Made by a program: the position numbers and the translations under genes
Shown here: in pieces, positions 1,524 through 18,650 of the stretch
Position numbering within the stretch: the first letter of the stretch is position 1
Layout of the letters: every line of letters starts with the position of its first letter
The notes under the pieces: generated by a model
What the model saw: only the letters and a program-made list of their open reading frames with translations
Told to the model about the DNA's origin: nothing
The model's database searches: none
Virus record (IMG/VR): IMGVR_UViG_2529292888_000015
Strand: one strand, 5' to 3'
DNA from: a virus
Lineage: Duplodnaviria > Heunggongvirae > Uroviricota > Caudoviricetes
Length of the DNA stretch: 19,550 nt

Positions 1524-1937
1524 TTACTCACCAACAGCCCACCAACTGTAATTCATCGATACCGTGTCGCTGGTTGATGACGTTCTGTAAGCAGAATTAA
1601 AGCCGGTTAACGTTGGGCCTTCTGCAGTCATCACGAACCCTCGCCCAGCGCCTAAAGGCGCACCGCCATCACCAGAATGAGTAAGCATGGCGCAGTCCGC
1701 TTTTTTGGGGAAAGGGATGCTGAATGTAATTCTCATTGTTTGCGTCGATAATGTCGGCGTAACCGCACCACGACCATATTGCAGGATTTTCCCGTTGGGT
1801 AATTTCATCCATCCATTACCACTGGCAAAAGAGGCCATGTCCGGTATCTGATTTTCCCCTGTCCCCACATCCCGTTTTGCCGCTTCTCCCAAACCAACGT
1901 TTATGAAAATGCAGAAATAACGAGCAAATGGCATCAT
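1524..1937 (-). CDS. Alternative tail fibre C-terminal variable domain (orientation-B tip), probably silent in this orientation
   Basis: Begins in the right inverted repeat with the same N-terminal peptide as the + strand tip; contains a classic fibre-tip motif (GWMKLPNGKILQYG). The annotated Met is unlikely to be a real start; expression would require inversion. Confidence 0.55.
   Translation of the reverse strand: MMPFARYFCIFINVGLGEAAKRDVGTGENQIPDMASFASGNGWMKLPNGKILQYGRGAVTPTLSTQTMRITFSIPFPKKADCAMLTHSGDGGAPLGAGRGFVMTAEGPTLTGFNSAYRTSSTSDTVSMNYSWWAVGE
1883..1934. repeat. Right inverted repeat of the invertible segment
   Basis: Reverse complement of 1..52, ending 30 bp upstream of the invertase start codon. 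Confidence 0.8.
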
Positions 1938-1963
1938 TCCTGCTTTTGTCAGGGAGATCTACC

Positions 1964-2518
1964 ATGCTTATTGGCTATGTACGTGTGTCAACAAATGACC
2001 AGAACACAGATCTACAACGTAATGCGCTGAACTGTGCAGGATGCGAGCTGATTTTTGAAGACAAGATAAGCGGTACAAAGTCCGAAAGGCCGGGACTGAA
2101 AAAACTGCTCAGGACATTATCGGCAGGTGACACTCTGGTTGTCTGGAAACTGGATCGGCTGGGGCGCAGTATGCGGCATCTGGTCATTCTGGTTGAGGAG
2201 TTGCGCGAACGTGGCGTTAATTTTCGCAGCCTGACGGATGCTATTGATACCAGTACCCCAATGGGGCGCTTTTTCTTTCATGTGATGGGGGCCCTGGCTG
2301 AAATGGAACGAGAACTGATTGTTGAACGAACAAAAGCTGGACTGGAAGCTGCTCGCGCACAGGGACGAATTGGTGGACGTCGTCCCAAACTTACACCAGA
2401 ACAATGGGCGCAGGCCGGACGATTAATTGCAGCAGGAATTCCTCGCCAGAAGGTAGCGATCATCTATGATGTTGGTGTATCGACACTGTATAAGAAGTTT
2501 CCGGCCGGAGATAAATGA
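1964..2518 (+). CDS. pin: Serine recombinase / DNA invertase of the Pin/Gin/Hin/Cin family
   Basis: N-terminus MLIGYVRVSTNDQNTDLQRNAL carries the catalytic serine motif; VVWKLDRLGRS and C-terminal HTH (GIPRQKVAIIYDVGVSTLYKK); AGGGAG RBS at 1951..1956; start taken at the internal ATG at 1964 rather than the track's 1928. Confidence 0.92.
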   Translation: MLIGYVRVSTNDQNTDLQRNALNCAGCELIFEDKISGTKSERPGLKKLLRTLSAGDTLVVWKLDRLGRSMRHLVILVEELRERGVNFRSLTDAIDTSTPMGRFFFHVMGALAEMERELIVERTKAGLEAARAQGRIGGRRPKLTPEQWAQAGRLIAAGIPRQKVAIIYDVGVSTLYKKFPAGDK

Positions 2519-2575
2519 AACCGTAGCACGTCGTATGCAAGATCGTGCTGCGGTTTATGCTTACCACTTGAAGAT

Positions 2576-3445
<870 letters not shown>

Positions 3446-3528
3446 CTAACCCTTTGAATTTACATAGCGCAAAAAGATACCTTTCCTCATAATGTGAGCT
3501 AATTTTATGTTTCGTTTGATGATCGGGT

Positions 3529-3590
3529 CGGTCTCGAAAACCGGAGTAGGGGCAACTCTACCGGGGGTTCAAATCCCCCTCTCTCCGCCA
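3529..3590 (+). other. 3' fragment (~62 nt) of a tRNA-Ser(CGA) gene, from anticodon stem to CCA; presumed prophage att core duplicate
   Basis: cggtctcgaaaaccggagtaggggcaactctaccgggggttcaaatccccctctctccgcca matches the anticodon loop (CGA), long variable arm, T-arm and acceptor 3' strand of enterobacterial tRNA-Ser, recalled from memory. No matching 5' acceptor strand (GGAGAG...) upstream, so it is not a complete tRNA. Confidence 0.7.
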
Positions 3591-4172
3591 CTTTATCAAT
3601 GACTTATCTCCCGACTTCCCGCCTTGCTTTTCCTAAACAGAACAATCGTAGAATATTCTTGAAGGGTTAGATCGTCACTGTTTTCTGTTCGATACTGTGA
3701 CATTCAGCACTTGATTCGCTATGGATCTGACAGGAAGGTTTTGAGCGAAAATCTGCAGTTATTCAGTCGTTTTCTTATCGGTCACCATTATTCTTTTAGA
3801 CATTGATCCTACAAAGCTGCCGCAAAGTTGGTGGTGGGAACTGAAGTTGCGTAGAGAAGGGGTCAATACCCGGAGGCAAACATGGGCTGGCAAAAGTGTA
3901 GCGGTATTAGGCGCAGCTATTTAGCCTAGTTATGTTTTATGAAAACTTGATATCATATAAGTGTCTTACTTATTGGCTGTAAATAAGTTTTTCCTAAGGA
4001 ATTGTTTCTTGAGTATCATTTGTAACTGTAACGGAATTTATAATCCTTTGCTTTATTGTTACGGTATTTTTTATCACACCCTATTTTTAGTGGTTTTTTA
4101 TACTGAAGTTTGGCAAAGTGAACTTTATATACATATACTTCATCCTGGTTTCAGTTAAATTGGGGGGATGAT

Positions 4173-4916
4173 ATGGCAACTACATGTTCAGTTATATTGA
4201 TTTTGGAGTCCTTTGATGTTTATTTCGGAAAAGAGAGTGTGTTTCTGGAGAGAGGTTCATCTGTACTTGTCGACTCTAGCTCTAGAGATTTTTTCCTGAC
4301 ATATCCTGAAAGAGTGATAGTGGCGGATTTTGGCGCTGAGTTTATTAGTCGCTATTTGAAAGCTAATAACTTAAGGGATATTTCTGATTGTAGGGAATAT
4401 CCATCTTATTTAAAAATAAACTTTGCTGACTTCAGTTTAATTAAAGGATTAATTAGTTGGGCTAATCACTGTGCTGAATACATAGAAATTTTTGATGAGT
4501 CTATTGCTTTTACATGTCTCTCTGCATTTTCTTCTGAAAAACAATTTGGAGTATTTCTGTTTGGATGTTTGAAAAGCACAGGGGCTAAAGTTAAAACGAT
4601 TATTCATACGGATTTATCTGCACCATGGCGTCTTAAGGATATATCATCAAGATTATATCTCAGCGAAAGTTTACTAAAGAGGAAATTGAAAGAAGAGGGG
4701 GTATCATTCAGTAAGATCATACTTGATGAGAGGATGCAAATGGCTGAATATTTACTCAGCACTCGTTGTTATCCTATTAGTAAAGTAGCTAAGGTCTGTG
4801 GTTATGCCAGTGTCTCATACTTTACTTATGTATTTAGACGTTATTTTGGTGTTTCTCCAAGTCAATACTCTCAGAGGAGTTCAGAAAGTAAAATTCTTAC
4901 TCACCAGGGAATCTGA
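4173..4916 (+). CDS. AraC/XylS-family transcriptional regulator (AppY/EnvY/Rns-like small activator)
   Basis: 247 aa; C-terminal AraC-type double HTH (SKIILDERMQMAEYLLSTRCYPISKVAKVCGYASVSYFTYVFRRYFGVSPSQY); AT-rich gene with an extremely AT-rich upstream region. Confidence 0.85.
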   Translation: MATTCSVILILESFDVYFGKESVFLERGSSVLVDSSSRDFFLTYPERVIVADFGAEFISRYLKANNLRDISDCREYPSYLKINFADFSLIKGLISWANHCAEYIEIFDESIAFTCLSAFSSEKQFGVFLFGCLKSTGAKVKTIIHTDLSAPWRLKDISSRLYLSESLLKRKLKEEGVSFSKIILDERMQMAEYLLSTRCYPISKVAKVCGYASVSYFTYVFRRYFGVSPSQYSQRSSESKILTHQGI

Positions 4917-5400
4917 TCATTGTTCTTGCCCCCTTATTTCCAGACAGGGGGGGTATCTTAAGTTAACGTTACCCGCTGACGTCGATATTCTCGCGGAGAG
5001 CGATAACCCAACGCACTGTGCGGATGGTTTTCATTGTAATGTTCGATCGCCACTGCAAGATTATGCAATGCCGTTCTTACATTCGGTTTCGGCATGAACG
5101 CGATGTAGTCTTCCTTCATCGTTTTCACGAACCTTTCTGCAATTCCATTACTCTGAGGACTGCTGATTGCCGTTGTGCAGGGCTCCAGATTCAACTCTCT
5201 GGCGAACTGCCGTGTTTCATGCGCTCTATACGCTGAACCGTTATCTGTCAGCCACTGGATGGACTGTTCCGGTACTTTATCGCCAAAGCGTTTTTCTATC
5301 GCTCCTAACATGACATCCTGCACTGTCGCTTTATCGTAACCTCCCGTGCTTGCGGCCCAGTCTATGGCTTCACGATCGCAACAGTCCAGGGCGATTCATC
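4917..5400 (-). mobile_element. IS2-like (IS3 family) insertion sequence remnant: right terminal repeat plus the 3' part of the transposase gene
   Basis: 4920..4945 (ttgcccccttatttccagaca) resembles the IS2 terminal inverted repeat as recalled from memory; adjacent ORF encodes only the C-terminal DDE-domain portion of an IS3-family transposase. Upper boundary is approximate. Confidence 0.6.
4958..5323 (-). pseudogene. Truncated IS3-family (IS2 OrfB-like) transposase, C-terminal fragment only
   Basis: 121-aa ORF with [21 protein letters not shown]...[20 protein letters not shown]...[12 protein letters not shown], the C-terminal rve/DDE region; the ~180 N-terminal residues and orfA are absent. 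Confidence 0.7.
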
Positions 5401-5670
5401 TGGGCCAATCCTTGCTCATAACAGGCATTCACTTCAGTCATGGCAGAAAGGTATGCATGCTGGAGAAGTCGTGAAAGAAAAGAAGACTGCTGCGCCGTTT
5501 GTCGTCACGTTTATCTTCATTGGCTATGCAAGTCGTAATACAAGGTGGGACAAAACTGAGACACATAAGGCCTCGCAATGGCTTGCAAGGCTTTACATGT
5601 TTTGATGTGGTGGGACGTGTGAGCGCAGTGTTGATGGGGTAATGCTTTGAATTAGAAGCGGATTCTTATA

Positions 5671-5716
5671 ATTCGTAATGCGAAGGTCGTAGGTTCGACT
5701 CCTATTATCGGCACCA
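5671..5716 (+). other. 3' fragment (46 nt) of a tRNA-Thr(CGU) gene; left att site of the P4-like element
   Basis: attcgtaatgcgaaggtcgtaggttcgactcctattatcggcacca matches the anticodon loop to CCA end of enterobacterial tRNA-Thr (thrW-like), recalled from memory; the 5' half is missing. Integrase gene begins 163 bp downstream. Confidence 0.75.
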
Positions 5717-5878
5717 TCTCAACTTCCTCAAACGTCCGTATTAGTCCATAAAATCTCTGATTTATAACATTTTTTATTCTTTTAAGTCCATAGTAGTCCG
5801 TAACCATCCAGTAGAATCCGGTACTGAATGTGTATAGGATTGTGTATATGTTCCTGTTCGGTCTGGATTCCTATACAC

Positions 5879-7060
5879 ATGCCTTTAAACGATATGCAGA
5901 TTCGCCGCGCTAAGCCTGAAGCTAAAGCCTATACATTTGGAGATGGGCTAGGGTTGTCATTACTTATAGAACCTAATGGAAGCAAGAGTTGGCGGTTCCG
6001 CTATCGCTATGCCGGCAAACCCAAAATGATCTCGCTTGGTGTTTACCCAACGATCACCCTTGCCGATGCTCGTTCCCGTCGTGATGAAGCTCGAAAACTT
6101 GTGGCAGAAGGAAAGAACCCTAGTGAGGTTCGAAAAGAGCAAAAGCTAGCTATGCAAACAGAGTCAGAGAACGCCTTCGAAAAGATAGCCAGAGAGTGGC
6201 ATCAACTTAAATCTGCTAAATGGTCGGCGGGATATGCATCAGACATCATGGAAGCGTTTAAGAACGACATTTTTCCTTATGTCGGAACAAGGCCTGTGGG
6301 AGAGATTAAACCGCTAGAGCTGCTGAACGTTCTGCGTAAAATTGAGAAACGTGGTGCGTTGGAGAAAATGCGCAAAGTGCGGCAGCGTTGCTCCGAAGTG
6401 TTTCGCTACGCAATTGCAACGGGTAGGGCGGAGTACAATCCTGCGGCTGATCTCTCCAGCGCTCTCGAAGTACACCAATCCAATCATTTCCCATTCCTAA
6501 AAGCTGATGAGATACCTGATTTTCTACGTGCCTTAGAGGGTTACTCCGGGAGTAAGCTTGTCCAGATAGCCACGAAATTACTGATGATTACGGGTGTGAG
6601 AACCATCGAATTACGCGCGGCATTATGGCAAGAATTTGATCTGGATAACGCTATTTGGGAAATTCCTGCTGAAAGGATGAAAATGCGTAGGCCACATCTT
6701 GTGCCCTTATCATCTCAAGCGGTAGATTTACTCAATGAACTCAAGATCATGACAGGGAACTATCGTTATGTTTTTCCAGGGCGGAACGATCCGAATAGGC
6801 CAATGAGCGAAGCGAGTATAAATCAAGCCATTAAGCGTATTGGGTATGGAGGAAAAGTCACTGGACATGGTTTTCGTCATACCCTTTCTACAATCCTGCA
6901 TGAGCAAGGTTTTGAGAGTGCTTGGATTGAAATCCAGTTGGCTCATGTAGATAAAAATTCTATTAGGGGGACTTATAACCATGCTCAATATTTTAGTGGA
7001 AGGAAGTCTATGATGGACTGGTACAGTAATTTGATATTTGAAAGACTAAAAAGGAGTTAA
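5879..7060 (+). CDS. int: P4-type tyrosine integrase
   Basis: N-terminus MPLNDMQIRRAKPEAKAYTFGDGLGLSLLIEPNGSKSWRFRYRYAGK is the typical P4-integrase arm-binding start; catalytic HGFRHTLST (HxxR) and C-terminal RGTYNHAQY tyrosine. Start set at ATG 5879 rather than the track's 5828. Confidence 0.92.
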   Translation: MPLNDMQIRRAKPEAKAYTFGDGLGLSLLIEPNGSKSWRFRYRYAGKPKMISLGVYPTITLADARSRRDEARKLVAEGKNPSEVRKEQKLAMQTESENAFEKIAREWHQLKSAKWSAGYASDIMEAFKNDIFPYVGTRPVGEIKPLELLNVLRKIEKRGALEKMRKVRQRCSEVFRYAIATGRAEYNPAADLSSALEVHQSNHFPFLKADEIPDFLRALEGYSGSKLVQIATKLLMITGVRTIELRAALWQEFDLDNAIWEIPAERMKMRRPHLVPLSSQAVDLLNELKIMTGNYRYVFPGRNDPNRPMSEASINQAIKRIGYGGKVTGHGFRHTLSTILHEQGFESAWIEIQLAHVDKNSIRGTYNHAQYFSGRKSMMDWYSNLIFERLKRS

Positions 7061-7063
7061 TTT

Positions 7064-7480
7064 GTGTCTCAACCACTTTCGGAAATATTGACATGGGATG
7101 ATGAACAATGGGAGGTATTTGTCCATGATTGGCTTATTGTCTGTAAATCAGATGATTACCCGTGGAGCGAACGTTTGGGAGGAGCTGGAGATAAAGGTAG
7201 AGACGTTGTTGGATATAAATCGGATCCTAACGTAGAAGGTTATTCTTGGGATAATTATCAATGCAAACTGTACAAAAAAAGTTTAGGGTTCTCTGATGTT
7301 GTAGTTGAGTTTGGAAAACTTATCTATTTTACTCTGAATGGTGATTATCCCATCCCTCAGAAGTACTTTTTTGTGGCACCCTATGATTTATCTACTACAT
7401 TTTCTAATTTATTGAAAAATAAAAACGAGCTTAAAAAAGCAGTCCTTGATTCATGGGATTCAGCAATTTCAAAAAAATAA
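7064..7480 (+). CDS. Mrr-like PD-(D/E)xK restriction-endonuclease catalytic domain protein; probable N-terminal part of a frameshifted effector gene (LmuA-like)
   Basis: GTG start with AAAAAGGAG RBS overlapping the int stop. GDKGRDVVGY ... DNYQCKLYKK ... KYFFVAPYDLSTTF aligns with the Mrr_cat motif order (GDGGIDG ... VQAKR ... GVFITTSGFT). ORF ends at a TAA immediately after an A7 run. Confidence 0.6.
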   Translation: MSQPLSEILTWDDEQWEVFVHDWLIVCKSDDYPWSERLGGAGDKGRDVVGYKSDPNVEGYSWDNYQCKLYKKSLGFSDVVVEFGKLIYFTLNGDYPIPQKYFFVAPYDLSTTFSNLLKNKNELKKAVLDSWDSAISKK

Positions 7481-8070
7481 CTAAAAAGATTGATATTCCA
7501 TTAGATGATGAAATAAAAAAATATATTGAGGATTTTGATTTTAGTATTTTTTACTCTCTACCCTTATCATTGATTTTAAATGATATTGCAAATACACACC
7601 TTTATTTTAAGTACTTTAACGAGCTGTATGTCGTGAGAATCCCTCCAAATGAAATTCCAACATACAATTCAAAAAAAGAGTCTGTATATGTTAATGCACT
7701 GCTTCAAGCCTATTCAGAGCATGGAAATAAAACTTATAGTTCTTTCTTAGAGCTTGATGATCCATACAGACGACACTTTAATAATAGTAGAAATGATTTT
7801 TATTTTGCATCTTCGCTTGAGGTTTTTGTCCGCGAAGTATTTAAAGATGATGTATTCAAAGCATTGAAATGTTACATTTCATCTTCAATTGAACCCGTCT
7901 TTTATGAAGACCATAATTATGCATTTATTAGGTGTAATGCAGTCTTGAAGCAGGCTGTTCTGACACCAATTGCACATTCAGTACTATCAAAAATATGTGA
8001 AGCAAATGATAAAAAAGGAATATGCCATCATTTGGTTAATGATGGTGAAGTAATTTGGACGGTGAGATAA
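7453..8070 (+). CDS. Hypothetical protein; probable C-terminal part of the same effector gene, in a different frame
   Basis: Overlaps the previous ORF by 28 nt; one extra A in the 7471..7477 run would fuse the two into a ~335-aa protein. Stop overlaps the next start (TAATG at 8068..8072). Very AT-rich. Confidence 0.55.
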   Translation: MGFSNFKKITKKIDIPLDDEIKKYIEDFDFSIFYSLPLSLILNDIANTHLYFKYFNELYVVRIPPNEIPTYNSKKESVYVNALLQAYSEHGNKTYSSFLELDDPYRRHFNNSRNDFYFASSLEVFVREVFKDDVFKALKCYISSSIEPVFYEDHNYAFIRCNAVLKQAVLTPIAHSVLSKICEANDKKGICHHLVNDGEVIWTVR

Positions 8071-8528
8071 TGGTTAGAATTTATAATTCAAGTTTAGAAG
8101 TGGCATGTCGAATGGCGAAAGTGCTCGTCGCTATTTATCCTTCTTCATTAAGCCTTGAACGGCTTATTTGTTTTGATTTTATTTTAGTAAATCTTAAGGA
8201 TTTTTTACCTGAAGAGATTAGTCTTCATCCTCCAATACCCCGTAGAGATGCTCAGTTAGCCCTAAAACGAGAGATTGTTTTAGAATCATTGGCTTTGTTG
8301 CAAGGCTATGAACTAGCCTCAAAAATTTATACACATCGTGGTTTTGTATATAAAGCTTCTGAAAAAACATATGCATTTACAAATTCTCTACATAATGAAT
8401 ATGTTGCGCAGATGGAGCATAATATAAATTTGGTGGTTAAGTTATATAGTGATATTCCTGATGAGCAGTTGCAATCAATTATAAAAAATAAAATTGGCAA
8501 ATATGATATGGAATTTAATTATGAATGA
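8070..8528 (+). CDS. Small predicted alpha-helical protein (~152 aa), middle gene of the cargo operon (LmuC/DdmB-like position)
   Basis: ATG at 8070 coupled to the upstream stop; stop TGA at 8526..8528 overlaps the downstream ATG at 8521 (ATGAATGA). No recognisable catalytic motif. Confidence 0.6.
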   Translation: MVRIYNSSLEVACRMAKVLVAIYPSSLSLERLICFDFILVNLKDFLPEEISLHPPIPRRDAQLALKREIVLESLALLQGYELASKIYTHRGFVYKASEKTYAFTNSLHNEYVAQMEHNINLVVKLYSDIPDEQLQSIIKNKIGKYDMEFNYE

Positions 8529-9153
8529 CAATTTTTTTACGTTCAGAAAAATAAAGGTAACCGGATTCAATAAATTAGATGCTATAATTGAATTTGGTTC
8601 TAAATTGACTATTTTATATGGTGGTTCTGACTCTGGAAAAACATACATATATTATTTGATTCGATATTTATTAGGGAGTGAAAAACTAAAAAATAAAGAT
8701 ATCGATCATGCTCAAGGTTATGATTTAGCCTATCTGGAATTTAATTTTCAAGGTAGGGTAATGACAATTGAGAGGTCTCTTCAGGATAGCGCCCATTACA
8801 GATTATATGATTCGAGCATTGAAAATGTTAGTGAAGCTAATCTGTTGATGGTTTTTTCCAAAAGTGCTTCGTCTAAAAAGAGTTTTTCATCATACTTTTA
8901 TGGTAGGTTGAATTTCAAAGAGGCTAAAGTAAGAACAAACTTAAGTAATACTCTTCATAAATTTAATCTTAATAATGTTTTTGAATTTTTTTGTATTGAT
9001 GAATTAAGAGTGTTAACTGAGAAGTCGTTAATTCTTTCTGATATTCCTAGCGAGGAGACAAAAAGAAAGTCTGAATTTAAATTCCTTTTAACTCAGAGAG
9101 ATGATACTAACTCCTTAGCAGAAAAACCAAATAAAAAAGCAAGATATTTTTAA
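8521..9153 (+). CDS. SMC/Rad50/RecF-like ABC ATPase, N-terminal head with Walker A; apparently terminated by an in-frame TAA
   Basis: FRKIKVTGFNKLDAIIEFGSKLTILYGGSDSGKTYIYYLIRYLLG is the SMC_N/AAA_23-type N-terminal strand plus Walker A (GGSDSGKT). The next ORF is in the same frame, separated only by TAA 9151..9153. Confidence 0.65.
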   Translation: MNDNFFTFRKIKVTGFNKLDAIIEFGSKLTILYGGSDSGKTYIYYLIRYLLGSEKLKNKDIDHAQGYDLAYLEFNFQGRVMTIERSLQDSAHYRLYDSSIENVSEANLLMVFSKSASSKKSFSSYFYGRLNFKEAKVRTNLSNTLHKFNLNNVFEFFCIDELRVLTEKSLILSDIPSEETKRKSEFKFLLTQRDDTNSLAEKPNKKARYF

Positions 9154-9183
9154 AAAAATCAAATTGCAAATATTTATGAGGAA

Positions 9184-9774
9184 TTGAAAGCGCAATTAAT
9201 TTATCCTGAATATGATCAAGTCATTGTTTCAAGAGAACTTGAGAAAGTAGAGCAAGATATTGAATCATCGAAAGATATATTGAAAGGTATTGTTGATGCA
9301 CTTGATGATAAGAAGCAATTATTAAAAGAGTTAAGTGATGAATTATATTCAATCAGTGACAGGGAAAAATACTTATCATTACTCATTGAAAGATTTAGTC
9401 TTCTTAAAGACCAATACTTTATAGATCTACAAAGAATAGATGTTGTATCACAGGCGAATTTCTATTTAAATAATTTTGCAGATATTTATTGTGAGTTCTG
9501 TAATACACCGCAAAAAAAAGAAAATGAAATATCATATGATGATTGTTTTTTGTCGTGTAATGCAGAAAAATTGAAAATCAAAAGCCAGCTGAAAGGATTA
9601 ATTGAATCAATCGGATCTAATGTTCGCGAACATGAATTAATTATGTTAAGAAAAAATGATGTTAATGAAATTTATCAATCAGAAAAAAGTGATTTTAAGA
9701 CGTTAGAAGATAAAAATATAAAACAATACATTCATCTCTTGAATCACTTTATGAATATAAAGACAATCTTTTAA
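9184..9774 (+). CDS. Coiled-coil segment with a central CxxC (CEFC), probable middle part of the same SMC-like ATPase
   Basis: Charged heptad-like sequence (ELEKVEQDIESSKDILKGIVDALDDKKQLLKELSDEL...); no in-frame ATG start (track uses TTG at 9184); same frame as 8521..9153. Confidence 0.5.
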   Translation: MKAQLIYPEYDQVIVSRELEKVEQDIESSKDILKGIVDALDDKKQLLKELSDELYSISDREKYLSLLIERFSLLKDQYFIDLQRIDVVSQANFYLNNFADIYCEFCNTPQKKENEISYDDCFLSCNAEKLKIKSQLKGLIESIGSNVREHELIMLRKNDVNEIYQSEKSDFKTLEDKNIKQYIHLLNHFMNIKTIF

Positions 9775-10340
9775 TGGATCACACAAAACATAGCATTCTA
9801 TCTTCATTACAAGATAAAGAAGATGATGTTGACGAACTTAAATACTCCGCCGAGGACTTTGACTCCTTAACAGTAGCTGATTTGTATGATATAGAAATAG
9901 CGATGCAAGACTTTTTGAATGATATAAATTTTGAAAATTCTAAAGATAACAAAGTGCGATTTGACGAAGATACATATGACTTTAATATCAATGGGAAACG
10001 CCGAGGAATGTTTGGTAAAGGTACCCGTGCAGTAATGCATGCTATATTTACCATTTGCTTTGCGGAATTTTTATCAAGAAAAGGGAATCCATTCATTGGA
10101 TTTGTTGTGCTTGATAGTCCATTAGTGACGCACTTTGATAAAGATAGAGGGGGTTCTCTATCGGATGTTAATAGCGTCAGTCTCAGTGATTCATTTTATC
10201 ACGCATTAATCAAAAGGGACTATAATTTCCAGATTGTAATTCTTGAGAATAAAGGTCCGACGTTCCAAATAAAAATTAATGATGCAAATAAAATCCATAA
10301 CTTAAATAAGAATGGAAGCTCTGGTTTTTATCCTGTTTAA
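9774..10340 (+). CDS. C-terminal head of an SMC-like ABC ATPase (signature-like and Walker B-like motifs, both non-canonical)
   Basis: GMFGKGTRAVMHAIFTICFAEFL ... FIGFVVLDSPL ... FQIVILEN occupy the positions of the signature, Walker B and H-loop of SMC-type heads but are degenerate (DS instead of DE). Start overlaps the upstream stop (TAATG); one extra A in the runs at 9712..9723 would fuse it to the preceding ORF. Confidence 0.55.
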   Translation: MDHTKHSILSSLQDKEDDVDELKYSAEDFDSLTVADLYDIEIAMQDFLNDINFENSKDNKVRFDEDTYDFNINGKRRGMFGKGTRAVMHAIFTICFAEFLSRKGNPFIGFVVLDSPLVTHFDKDRGGSLSDVNSVSLSDSFYHALIKRDYNFQIVILENKGPTFQIKINDANKIHNLNKNGSSGFYPV

Positions 10341-10370
10341 TACATTAAAAATATAACTGCTAATTGGGGT

Positions 10371-10396
10371 GCTCGAAATTATATTTCGTTTCGAGC
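10371..10396 (+). terminator. Hairpin downstream of the cargo operon (possible terminator, no clear U-tract)
   Basis: gctcgaaa (10371..10378) pairs with tttcgagc (10389..10396), beginning 31 bp after the stop at 10340. Confidence 0.3.
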
Positions 10397-10749
10397 GCTC
10401 AGTTCATTTCTAAATAATTTGCAAAATTATTTTGGGTACTTTCGCCTCTACACTTCCTTCGGGTGGTTCCACAATAATGGATCTCACCGGCGTTTGATAT
10501 TTTATAATCTAACCCCTTAGCGCGCGCAGCCCCCCACGCCTGCTCGCTTCGCTTAACAGACTGGTTTTCATGCATTCCGCAAATCGTCTCAGAAGCCACC
10601 ACACAAGGGCTTTCGCGTCAAAAATGGTGCATGAGAATCATGCGTTTTCATGCGCTATAGACATGCACTCATGCGCTCTCAGGCCAGCCAGGGAAAAGGC
10701 GTAAAAAATCCCAGTACTGGACCGGGATTACGTGGGCTTTTTTTGCTAA

Positions 10750-13522: not shown

Positions 13523-13881
13523 TGATACCTGCATACATTAAATACCTTTATTCTGGCTTGCTTACTGTCGTCATTTCCAGGTATAGTTTTTCCGCTGTCG
13601 CAAAATCGGCAGCCGGAATTGGCGTTCCGTATAACTTATTGGCGACAATTGACGCCCCTTGCGTCTTTTTTTACGTCGTAGCTCAGGCACAACCATTTTC
13701 AGGGCTGTGGTGTTTATGCTTACACCATGGTTCTATCGAGATAATGGTAGTCCGGGCGGGGCAGCCTTCGGGCTGGCCGGTTTCCAATAAGGCCGGTTAC
13801 GCCAACCCCGTTCGGGCTGCCACCAGTGAAATTGGCGTTTCCGGTGGTAGCAATAACCGCTACTTATTGGAGGCTGCCATC

Positions 13882-18505: not shown

Positions 18506-18524
18506 GGTTCCTATTATCGCACCA
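18506..18524 (+). repeat. Degenerate direct repeat of the tRNA-Thr 3' end; candidate attR of the P4-like element
   Basis: ggttcctattatcgcacca versus ggttcgactcctattatcggcacca at 5692..5716: shared ggttc, cctattatcg and cacca in order, with two small gaps. Confidence 0.45.
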
Positions 18525-18650
18525 TTTAAATCAAGTAGTTACCCCATATTTAAATACACCACGTTTCCTCCTGTGCCGCATTTGTGCCATTGTAACCCTG
18601 GCAATTAATCAAAATACTGTTCTGACATCAGGCAATGCAGGTGCAGACAT

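Follow-up and report, generated by a model that had tools for sequence, protein, structure and literature searches.

patE, a prophage-borne AraC-family regulator gene of Escherichia coli O157:H7, and the ISEc48 remnant beside its stop codon

Introduction

What does it mean when the end of an insertion sequence (IS) lies almost directly behind the stop codon of a regulator gene that has no target operon beside it? This question is raised by a 19,550-nucleotide stretch of Caudoviricetes DNA (IMG/VR record IMGVR_UViG_2529292888_000015; "the window" refers to this whole stretch), in which an AraC-family activator gene at 4173-4916 is followed by the end of an IS3-family element. A preliminary description of the interval 3961-5400 had proposed that the insertion, or a later deletion, removed the operon controlled by the regulator and perhaps altered its last codons. 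The reading favored here, with a probability of roughly 0.9, is that the gene is patE, a stand-alone AraC/XylS-family activator gene and an accessory gene (putative moron) of the cryptic lambdoid prophage Sp1/CP-933H, and that the IS, ISEc48, is an old and inert scar by which no codon and no operon was lost. PatE (Z0321) of strain EDL933 was reportedly described by Bender et al. 2012. The gene is thus an already characterized O157:H7 prophage gene, and only the evolutionary details of the cassette that carries it are new.

The regulator gene and the junction at its stop codon

The list of open reading frames (ORFs) contains one convincing plus-strand gene in the interval 3961-5400, the ORF at 4173-4916, which ends with TGA at 4914-4916. 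The earlier label of an AT-rich regulator is correct, as the guanine-plus-cytosine (GC) content is 35.2% in the coding sequence and 28.9% in the 240 nucleotides (nt) upstream, compared to 43.1% in the whole window. The gene and its surroundings comprise the following features.

3931-4172, plus strand: 5′ non-coding region of patE, homologous (82.6%, nucleotide) to the region between Q and the AraC gene in L009, the locus of an 84% relative
4110-4139, plus strand: promoter-like site TTGGCA-18-TATACT, predicted from its match to the consensus
4162-4168, plus strand: G-rich ribosome-binding site upstream of patE
4173-4916, plus strand: patE (ECs_0287 / Z0321), 247 amino acids, AraC/XylS family, assigned by Pfam and by identity to Sakai and EDL933
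4917-4920: 4-nt spacer TCAT between the patE stop and the outer IS end, read from the sequence
4921-5394, minus strand: ISEc48 remnant (IS3 family, IS2-like), 474 base pairs (bp), assigned by homology to ISEc48
4921 to about 4946: right terminal inverted repeat of the ISEc48 remnant
4958-5392, minus strand: C-terminal third of the transposase, a pseudogene (rve_3/rve)

The hexamers TTGGCA and TATACT sit in a block that is conserved across all three aligned loci, and the site at 4110-4139 is likely the patE promoter. A 65-amino-acid ORF with a GTG start at 3961-4158 was rejected as a gene, because its frame is not conserved in the relatives and is broken there by indels; it represents the 5′ region of patE.

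The outer end of the IS is found 4 nt past the stop codon, where TGTTCTTGCCCCCTTATTTCCAGACA begins at 4921 after the TCAT spacer. The terminal repeat starts with TGTTCTTGCCCC, and has the TG start and the identity looked for in an ISEc48/IS3 end. Over its 474 bp, the stretch 4921-5394 matches the right end of a full-length copy in UMNK88, annotated as "IS3-like element ISEc48", at 96.8% identity. When compared to IS2 of K-12, the remnant has 71% identity over 424 bp, and the right repeat of IS2, TGGATTTGCCCCTATATTTCCAGACA, is similar. The element is therefore fairly called IS2-like, and IS2 proper is rejected. The IS2-like end that had been placed a few bp past the stop codon was accurately located, but it belongs to ISEc48 and not to IS2. 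The contact between the patE stop and the ISEc48 end is confirmed and is far beyond chance.

The minus-strand ORF at 4958-5323 contains the rve_3/rve integrase-core domains, and is a C-terminal piece of the transposase. The remnant is annotated in Sakai as "ISEc48 Family: IS3 partial", and in RefSeq as a pseudogene, "integrase core domain ... missing N-terminus". The element is incomplete: homology ends at 5394, 474 bp in; OrfA, the left end, and the region of the frameshift are missing, and orfB is reduced to its C-terminal rve_3 part. Because only the last 474 bp are left, the remnant is inert and cannot transpose.

The terminal repeat folds as a G+C-rich 9-bp hairpin at 4927-4955. Folding of this region is no better than that of shuffled sequence (z = +0.71), and a U-tract is absent. 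No intrinsic terminator was found 3′ of patE in 4917-5200. The repeat at 4927-4955 reads CAGGGGGGGTA in the patE-linked scar and CAGGGGTTGTA in the full-length UMNK88 copy. The two differences from the reference ISEc48 are changes to G; they extend the G run and lengthen a C5/G7 hairpin just past the patE stop. In a few O157:H7 strains, an IS1203 element (IS629-type) is present inside the ISEc48 scar, and patE is unchanged. An example is strain ATCC 43890 (L021), in which IS1203 occupies 1889-3102 of the locus, equivalent to a site within window 4921-5394.

Homologues without the insertion sequence

Protein search identified relatives of PatE at 84% (P0021, 244 amino acids) and 79% identity (P0022, 247 amino acids), and others at 47-55%. 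In the alignment, the C-terminus of P0022 (...SESEIITHEEI) ends in the same column as that of PatE (...SESKILTHQGI), and P0021 ends three residues short of it. The nucleotide alignment likewise places the TGA of P0022 opposite that of patE, with similarity ending a few bases beyond. No IS was found next to the gene in the inspected relatives (P0021, P0022, P0025, and the 53% group P0027-P0030). Because ISEc48 begins 4 nt after the native stop, the patE coding sequence is untouched, and by this alignment it is native to the last codon. The proposal that the last codons had been altered is not upheld, as the same C-terminus and stop occur in the IS-free P0022.

The relatives also resemble one another in their location. 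P0021 is preceded by a Q antiterminator gene and followed by a holin gene on a 146-kb contig, P0022 is directly upstream of a holin gene, and P0025 follows a Q-type antiterminator gene. The 53-55% relatives are found in the Q-to-holin region of lambdoid prophages and of sequenced phages such as 1H12, where the 53% relative shares this region with two other accessory genes. The genes of P0021 and P0022 have their own intrinsic terminator, CCAGCA-UUAU-UGCUGG plus a U run, about 60-70 nt past the stop. patE itself has as neighbors a GIY-YIG gene in divergent orientation, a fragment of tRNA-Ser, the IS scar, and the attachment (att) site of the prophage, which bears out the earlier remark that no target operon is nearby. 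Judging from these gene orders, the normal state of the PatE family is a single gene without a neighboring target operon. A neighboring operon is also not expected because the literature gives PatE distant targets (hdeA, gadE, and gadBC).

What the rearrangement did remove appears to be the native terminator and the DNA beyond it, since no terminator follows patE, the IS hairpin lacks a U-tract, and the relatives carry one. The earlier notion of a deletion is thus right in that the native terminator and downstream DNA were replaced, and wrong as to the content, since the downstream DNA in the relatives consists of phage lysis genes and not of a regulated operon. It is accordingly very improbable that the regulator once ran an adjacent fimbrial, acid-resistance, or envelope operon, and that the IS removed this operon, perhaps rewrote the last codons, and left a decaying orphan. 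The closeness of the IS end to the stop (4 nt) fits such a history, as does the missing terminator, but the IS-free relatives have the same C-terminus and stop position. The truncation of ISEc48 implies that a deletion did happen on its inner side, and many Rns/AppY-type regulators are generally known to adjoin their targets; the relatives, however, are single genes upstream of holin, with Q just upstream where the contig reaches, and no operon after them. Decay is also at odds with a gene that is intact at no less than 98.8% nucleotide identity in 654 complete genomes and in sequenced lambdoid phages, and whose product is active on distant targets according to the literature. IS-free homologues with the same C-terminus and a stand-alone context had been named beforehand as the finding that would speak against a lost operon, and P0021 and P0022 are such homologues.

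Identity of the gene

E. coli O157:H7 genomes, EDL933 and Sakai among them, match the window at 100% identity, and subtracting 304,928 from a Sakai coordinate gives the window position; the gene at 4173-4916 is Sakai 309101-309844. The protein is 100% identical to Sakai ECs_0287 and to its EDL933 counterpart. The Sakai record lists ECs_0287 as a "transcription regulator" and assigns it to "prophage Sp1, lambda-like phage", with thrW as the integration site; the gene is followed by the repeat_region "ISEc48 Family: IS3 partial" and then by the boundary of "prophage Sp2, P4-like phage". Searches of the whole of Sp1 by tblastn with PatE, AppY, YdeO, and EnvY found exactly one AraC-like locus, the ORF at 4173-4916. 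The remaining Sp1 regulators in the Sakai record are CI, Cro, and CII. Sp1 of Sakai is taken here to be CP-933H of EDL933, as established from the two genome papers; this step and the Z-number rest on established knowledge and gene order.

A 2024 review describes PatE as an AraC/XylS-family regulator that is encoded by z0321 on O-island 8 (OI-8) of EDL933. In a 2009 transcriptome paper, Z0321 is listed as "Putative regulator (prophage CP-933H)" of O-island 8, with expression six-fold higher in the wild type than in the rpoS mutant. In Sakai, expression of ECs0287 rises as cells enter stationary phase, which agrees with the RpoS dependence of Z0321. The gene under study is thus the AraC-like gene of CP-933H/O-island 8 in EDL933, and the two share the organism, the prophage, the status of sole AraC-like gene, and the RpoS/stationary-phase expression, with no detectable difference between them. 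The identification of the ORF as PatE/Z0321 is very safe, and we infer its last step from the OI-8 location, the sole AraC-like gene of Sp1/CP-933H, and the matching expression.

A cluster look-up of the exact protein returned the generic name "AraC family transcriptional regulator" and no "PatE" label, and the identification made here uses no printed sequence or coordinates. The ORF might on these grounds be another, uncharacterized AraC regulator, with PatE/Z0321 being a different gene of the island. This is scarcely credible given the single AraC-like locus found by tblastn in all of Sp1, the nature of the other regulators (CI, Cro, CII), and the concordance between the RpoS dependence of Z0321 and the stationary-phase induction of ECs0287.

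Protein family and predicted structure

[quoted passage not shown] The best NCBIfam model is YdeO (NF007407), with 148.1 bits against a cutoff of 348 over residues 1-235, and GadX is second. PatE is 35% identical to K-12 YdeO (full length, E 4e-47), 28% to AppY (full length), and 39% to EnvY (DNA-binding domain). A YdeO equivalog is ruled out by the score below the cutoff and the 35% identity, and YdeO is a relative and not an orthologue. Among solved structures, sequence comparison matches PatE to the DNA-binding domain of GadX and to CsvR, Rns, and ToxT.

The AlphaFold2 model of PatE, built from 19 sequences, has a predicted local distance difference test (pLDDT) score of 77.4, and its last 13 residues are of low confidence. 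The predicted N-terminal domain (residues about 1-135) is beta-rich, with six beta strands and helices, and is of moderate confidence (block means 53-78). The C-terminal domain (about 136-235) is helical, and comprises a double helix-turn-helix for DNA binding. The full-length Foldseek matches of the model are Rns, CsvR, and ToxT, with E-values of 1e-10 to 3e-7 and template modeling (TM) scores of 0.37-0.40, and the GadX DNA-binding domain is matched at 43-44% identity and a TM of 0.85-0.90. The model thus has the predicted two-domain fold of the Rns/ToxT type, with a beta-rich N-terminal domain and an AraC DNA-binding domain, at a TM of 0.37-0.40, which is low because the predicted domain orientation differs.

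Rns, CsvR, and ToxT are virulence AraC regulators with a fatty-acid-binding N-terminal domain. They have the two-domain layout in common with PatE and are its best full-length structural matches. In contrast, their identity to PatE is 17-23%, the TM is 0.40, and they mostly control fimbrial and toxin loci. YdeO and AppY of E. coli K-12 are AraC-type activators in the acid-resistance (gadE) network, with similarity to PatE over the full length. Like patE, appY is a single gene of a cryptic lambdoid prophage (DLP12), close to its right end and 3′ of remnants of tail-fiber genes, and no IS scar is annotated beside it. Unlike patE, ydeO is chromosomal and is part of the safA-ydeO operon. The description of the product as a small AppY/EnvY/Rns-type activator is therefore fair. 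patE is an intact, phage-borne, stand-alone gene, and its product is an AraC protein with two domains, of the same kind as YdeO, AppY, GadX, and Rns.

Distribution of the patE-ISEc48 junction

Among 5,426 complete E. coli genomes, patE (query 4100-4920) is present in 654 at an identity of at least 98.8%. A query that spans the junction (4761-5080) is covered in 649 genomes, which corresponds to 649 of the 654 patE-positive genomes. The junction is found at different chromosomal sites, including thrW prophages in non-O157 strains and a prophage next to bioA/ybhB (the bio/lambda site). The inner end of the ISEc48 scar varies, with lengths from about 65 to 474 bp, and the shortest (about 65 bp) is found in strain MEI005.

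The junction is also found in sequenced phages. The lambdoid phages ev099 and mEp332 carry PatE at 98-99% protein identity between the tail-fiber genes and int, and in both the same transposase fragment follows patE. The block common to ev099 and mEp332 at 99% nucleotide identity corresponds to window 3528-5394. PhiR70_1 carries patE at 99% identity. As judged by this distribution, the junction is old and fixed, the ISEc48 fragment is an old, inert scar, and the scar is ancestral to essentially all copies of patE, including those of the sequenced lambdoid phages. The scar is presumably neutral.

Some points weigh against the reading of the ORF as patE, a stand-alone gene with an inert scar. 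An IS-free, near-identical allele of patE was absent among the records inspected, and the ancestral downstream sequence of this allele is for this reason reconstructed from relatives at 79-84%. The equation of the ORF with Z0321/PatE is based on the island and prophage location, the sole AraC gene, and the expression match, and not on a printed sequence or coordinate. The patE promoter is a consensus match only, and promoter-like sites in the scan are fewer than in shuffled sequence. A terminator-like site is absent after patE.

Origin of the patE cassette

The DNA on both sides of patE contains remains of tRNA genes and a second prophage.

3520-3868, plus strand: captured host DNA, consisting of about 70 nt of the 3′ part of serU and about 280 bp of downstream chromosome, 96.6% identical to K-12 over 349 bp
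5671-5717, plus strand: 3′ 47 nt of thrW (tRNA-Thr), an att scar at the Sp1/Sp2 boundary, 100% match
5828-7060: P4-type integrase gene
18509-18534: 3′ 27 nt of thrW, a further attachment scar

The serU gene encodes tRNA-Ser(CGA), and its fragment forms, inside Sp1, the left-hand portion of the block that accompanies patE. The serU fragment is also present in phages ev099 and mEp332. Its sequence marks the piece as host DNA that was captured into the phage b region, probably by imprecise excision of an ancestor integrated at serU. A sub-threshold tRNA-like match of Rfam at 3509-3587 is the 3′ part of serU, and no intact tRNA was found in the window by ARAGORN.

Homology of the patE cassette to the 84% relative begins at window 3931, which is L009 5752 and lies 8 nt before the Q stop, and runs to the end of patE. 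From this extent of homology, the cassette seems to have been excised from the Q-to-holin slot, beginning in the last Q codons and ending 4 nt past the patE stop. The Q-to-holin slot is where the stx genes sit in Shiga-toxin phages. In Sp1, ev099, and mEp332, in comparison, patE is placed between the tail-fiber genes and int/att. As a putative moron, patE is a single gene, has a GC content of 35% versus 43% in the window, and has a conserved promoter-like site. The terminator is present only in the relatives, and the IS scar takes its place here.

The boundary of Sp1 and Sp2 in Sakai, 310627/310628, corresponds to window 5699/5700, and about 0.75 kb separates patE from the right end of Sp1. 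The two thrW pieces are scars of attachment, and mark the limits of the tandem prophages Sp1 (lambda-like) and Sp2 (P4-like). A GVEPTT-type ORF at 5652-5807 was discarded, as it is the 3′ end of thrW.

Function and proposed mechanism

PatE accounts in part for the acid tolerance of O157:H7 and hence for its low infectious dose, a role that reportedly entered the literature in 2012 and has since been covered in reviews. [quoted passage not shown] It is RpoS-dependent, induced in stationary phase, and acts in trans on promoters of the acid-fitness island, with a cis-element in hdeA between -132 and -45 in the account of a review. PatE and PsrB are given in the AppY paper as parallel cases to AppY, and the three are grouped as prophage AraC regulators wired into the acid-resistance network of the host. 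In the account of a review, PsrA (Z1789) and PsrB (Z2104) of O157:H7 are likewise AraC-like regulators from single prophage genes, both activate gadE and hdeA, and the hdeA region bound by PsrB is the one bound by PatE. Unlike PatE, PsrA and PsrB are encoded in other prophages (OI-50 and OI-57). The Q-to-holin context of the 53% relatives P0027-P0030 did not tie them to Z1789 or Z2104.

The proposed mechanism comprises the following steps. patE would be transcribed from its own conserved promoter at 4110-4139. PatE may bind AT-rich, H-NS-silenced promoters through its C-terminal double helix-turn-helix, by analogy with YdeO, AppY, and GadX, and would activate the distant hdeA, gadE, and gadBC promoters in trans in stationary phase, in line with the literature. 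The cassette from the Q-to-holin slot, consisting of the last Q codons, the intergenic region, and patE, would have moved into the phage b region beside the serU fragment. The ISEc48 fragment would mark the 3′ breakpoint of this move, in which the native terminator was removed, and no codon or cognate operon.

Neutrality of the scar may be set against the idea that it was retained since it is useful to patE, either with the repeat hairpin as the 3′ end or stabilizer of the mRNA, or with the rearrangement uncoupling patE from Q-dependent late transcription and allowing its expression in lysogens. This idea, which could also be an addition to the stand-alone reading, is quite unlikely. The junction is near-invariant (649 of 654 genomes and the sequenced phages), in contrast to the variable inner end, which leaves scars of about 65 to 474 bp, but near-invariance is also expected from linkage in a young clade with at least 98.8% identity. 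The 9-bp hairpin at 4927-4955 gains a longer G run from two G changes against the reference ISEc48, but its region shows no folding advantage over shuffled sequence (z = +0.71) and has no U-tract. Furthermore, the relatives in the Q-to-holin slot keep the conserved promoter block, and lysogenic expression may not need the move.

A further reading, in which the 1.87-kb block at 3528-5394 (serU fragment, patE, and ISEc48 scar) is a discrete cassette from the Q-to-holin slot, rebuilt in the b region, and the fixed scar in place of the native terminator also changed the expression of patE, is unlikely as a whole. If this were true, uncoupling from Q or a new mRNA 3′ end would have turned a lytic-cycle moron into a lysogen-expressed, RpoS-linked regulator of the host.

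For patE as a stand-alone gene beside an inert scar, the additions of an evolutionary kind are the intact gene, the ancestral IS scar, the serU piece in the cassette, and the nearest relatives in the Q-to-holin slot. In the PatE work as the reviews summarize it, the ISEc48 scar, the serU fragment, and the Q-holin-slot relatives are not discussed. The details of the cassette help annotation and could help studies of phage-moron evolution, and no new question is opened by them.

Other features of the window

A LEM-3-like GIY-YIG domain protein is encoded at 2576-3349 on the minus strand (Pfam E 3.8e-14), divergent from patE. The GIY-YIG gene accompanies patE in the thrW prophages of other strains, and is outside the block shared by ev099 and mEp332. 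Positions 1-2518 contain tail-fiber and tail-fiber-assembly genes on both strands, beside the pinE DNA invertase gene (Sakai ECs_0280-0284). This region is an invertible tail-fiber segment in a cryptic prophage, and IS insertions and deletions occur there in other O157 strains.

In Sp2, two Rfam families score above the gathering score and are located side by side, isrK at 13594-13671 (71.9 bits) and the C4 antisense RNA at 13740-13827 (84 bits). The region 7000-10500 is very AT-rich, with 28-35% GC. Just past the Sp2 integrase gene, at 7453-9153, RefSeq annotates an "ABC-three component system protein", an "ABC-three component system middle component 2", and an AAA ATPase. In the Sakai annotation, 8521-10340 is a single AAA ATPase pseudogene.

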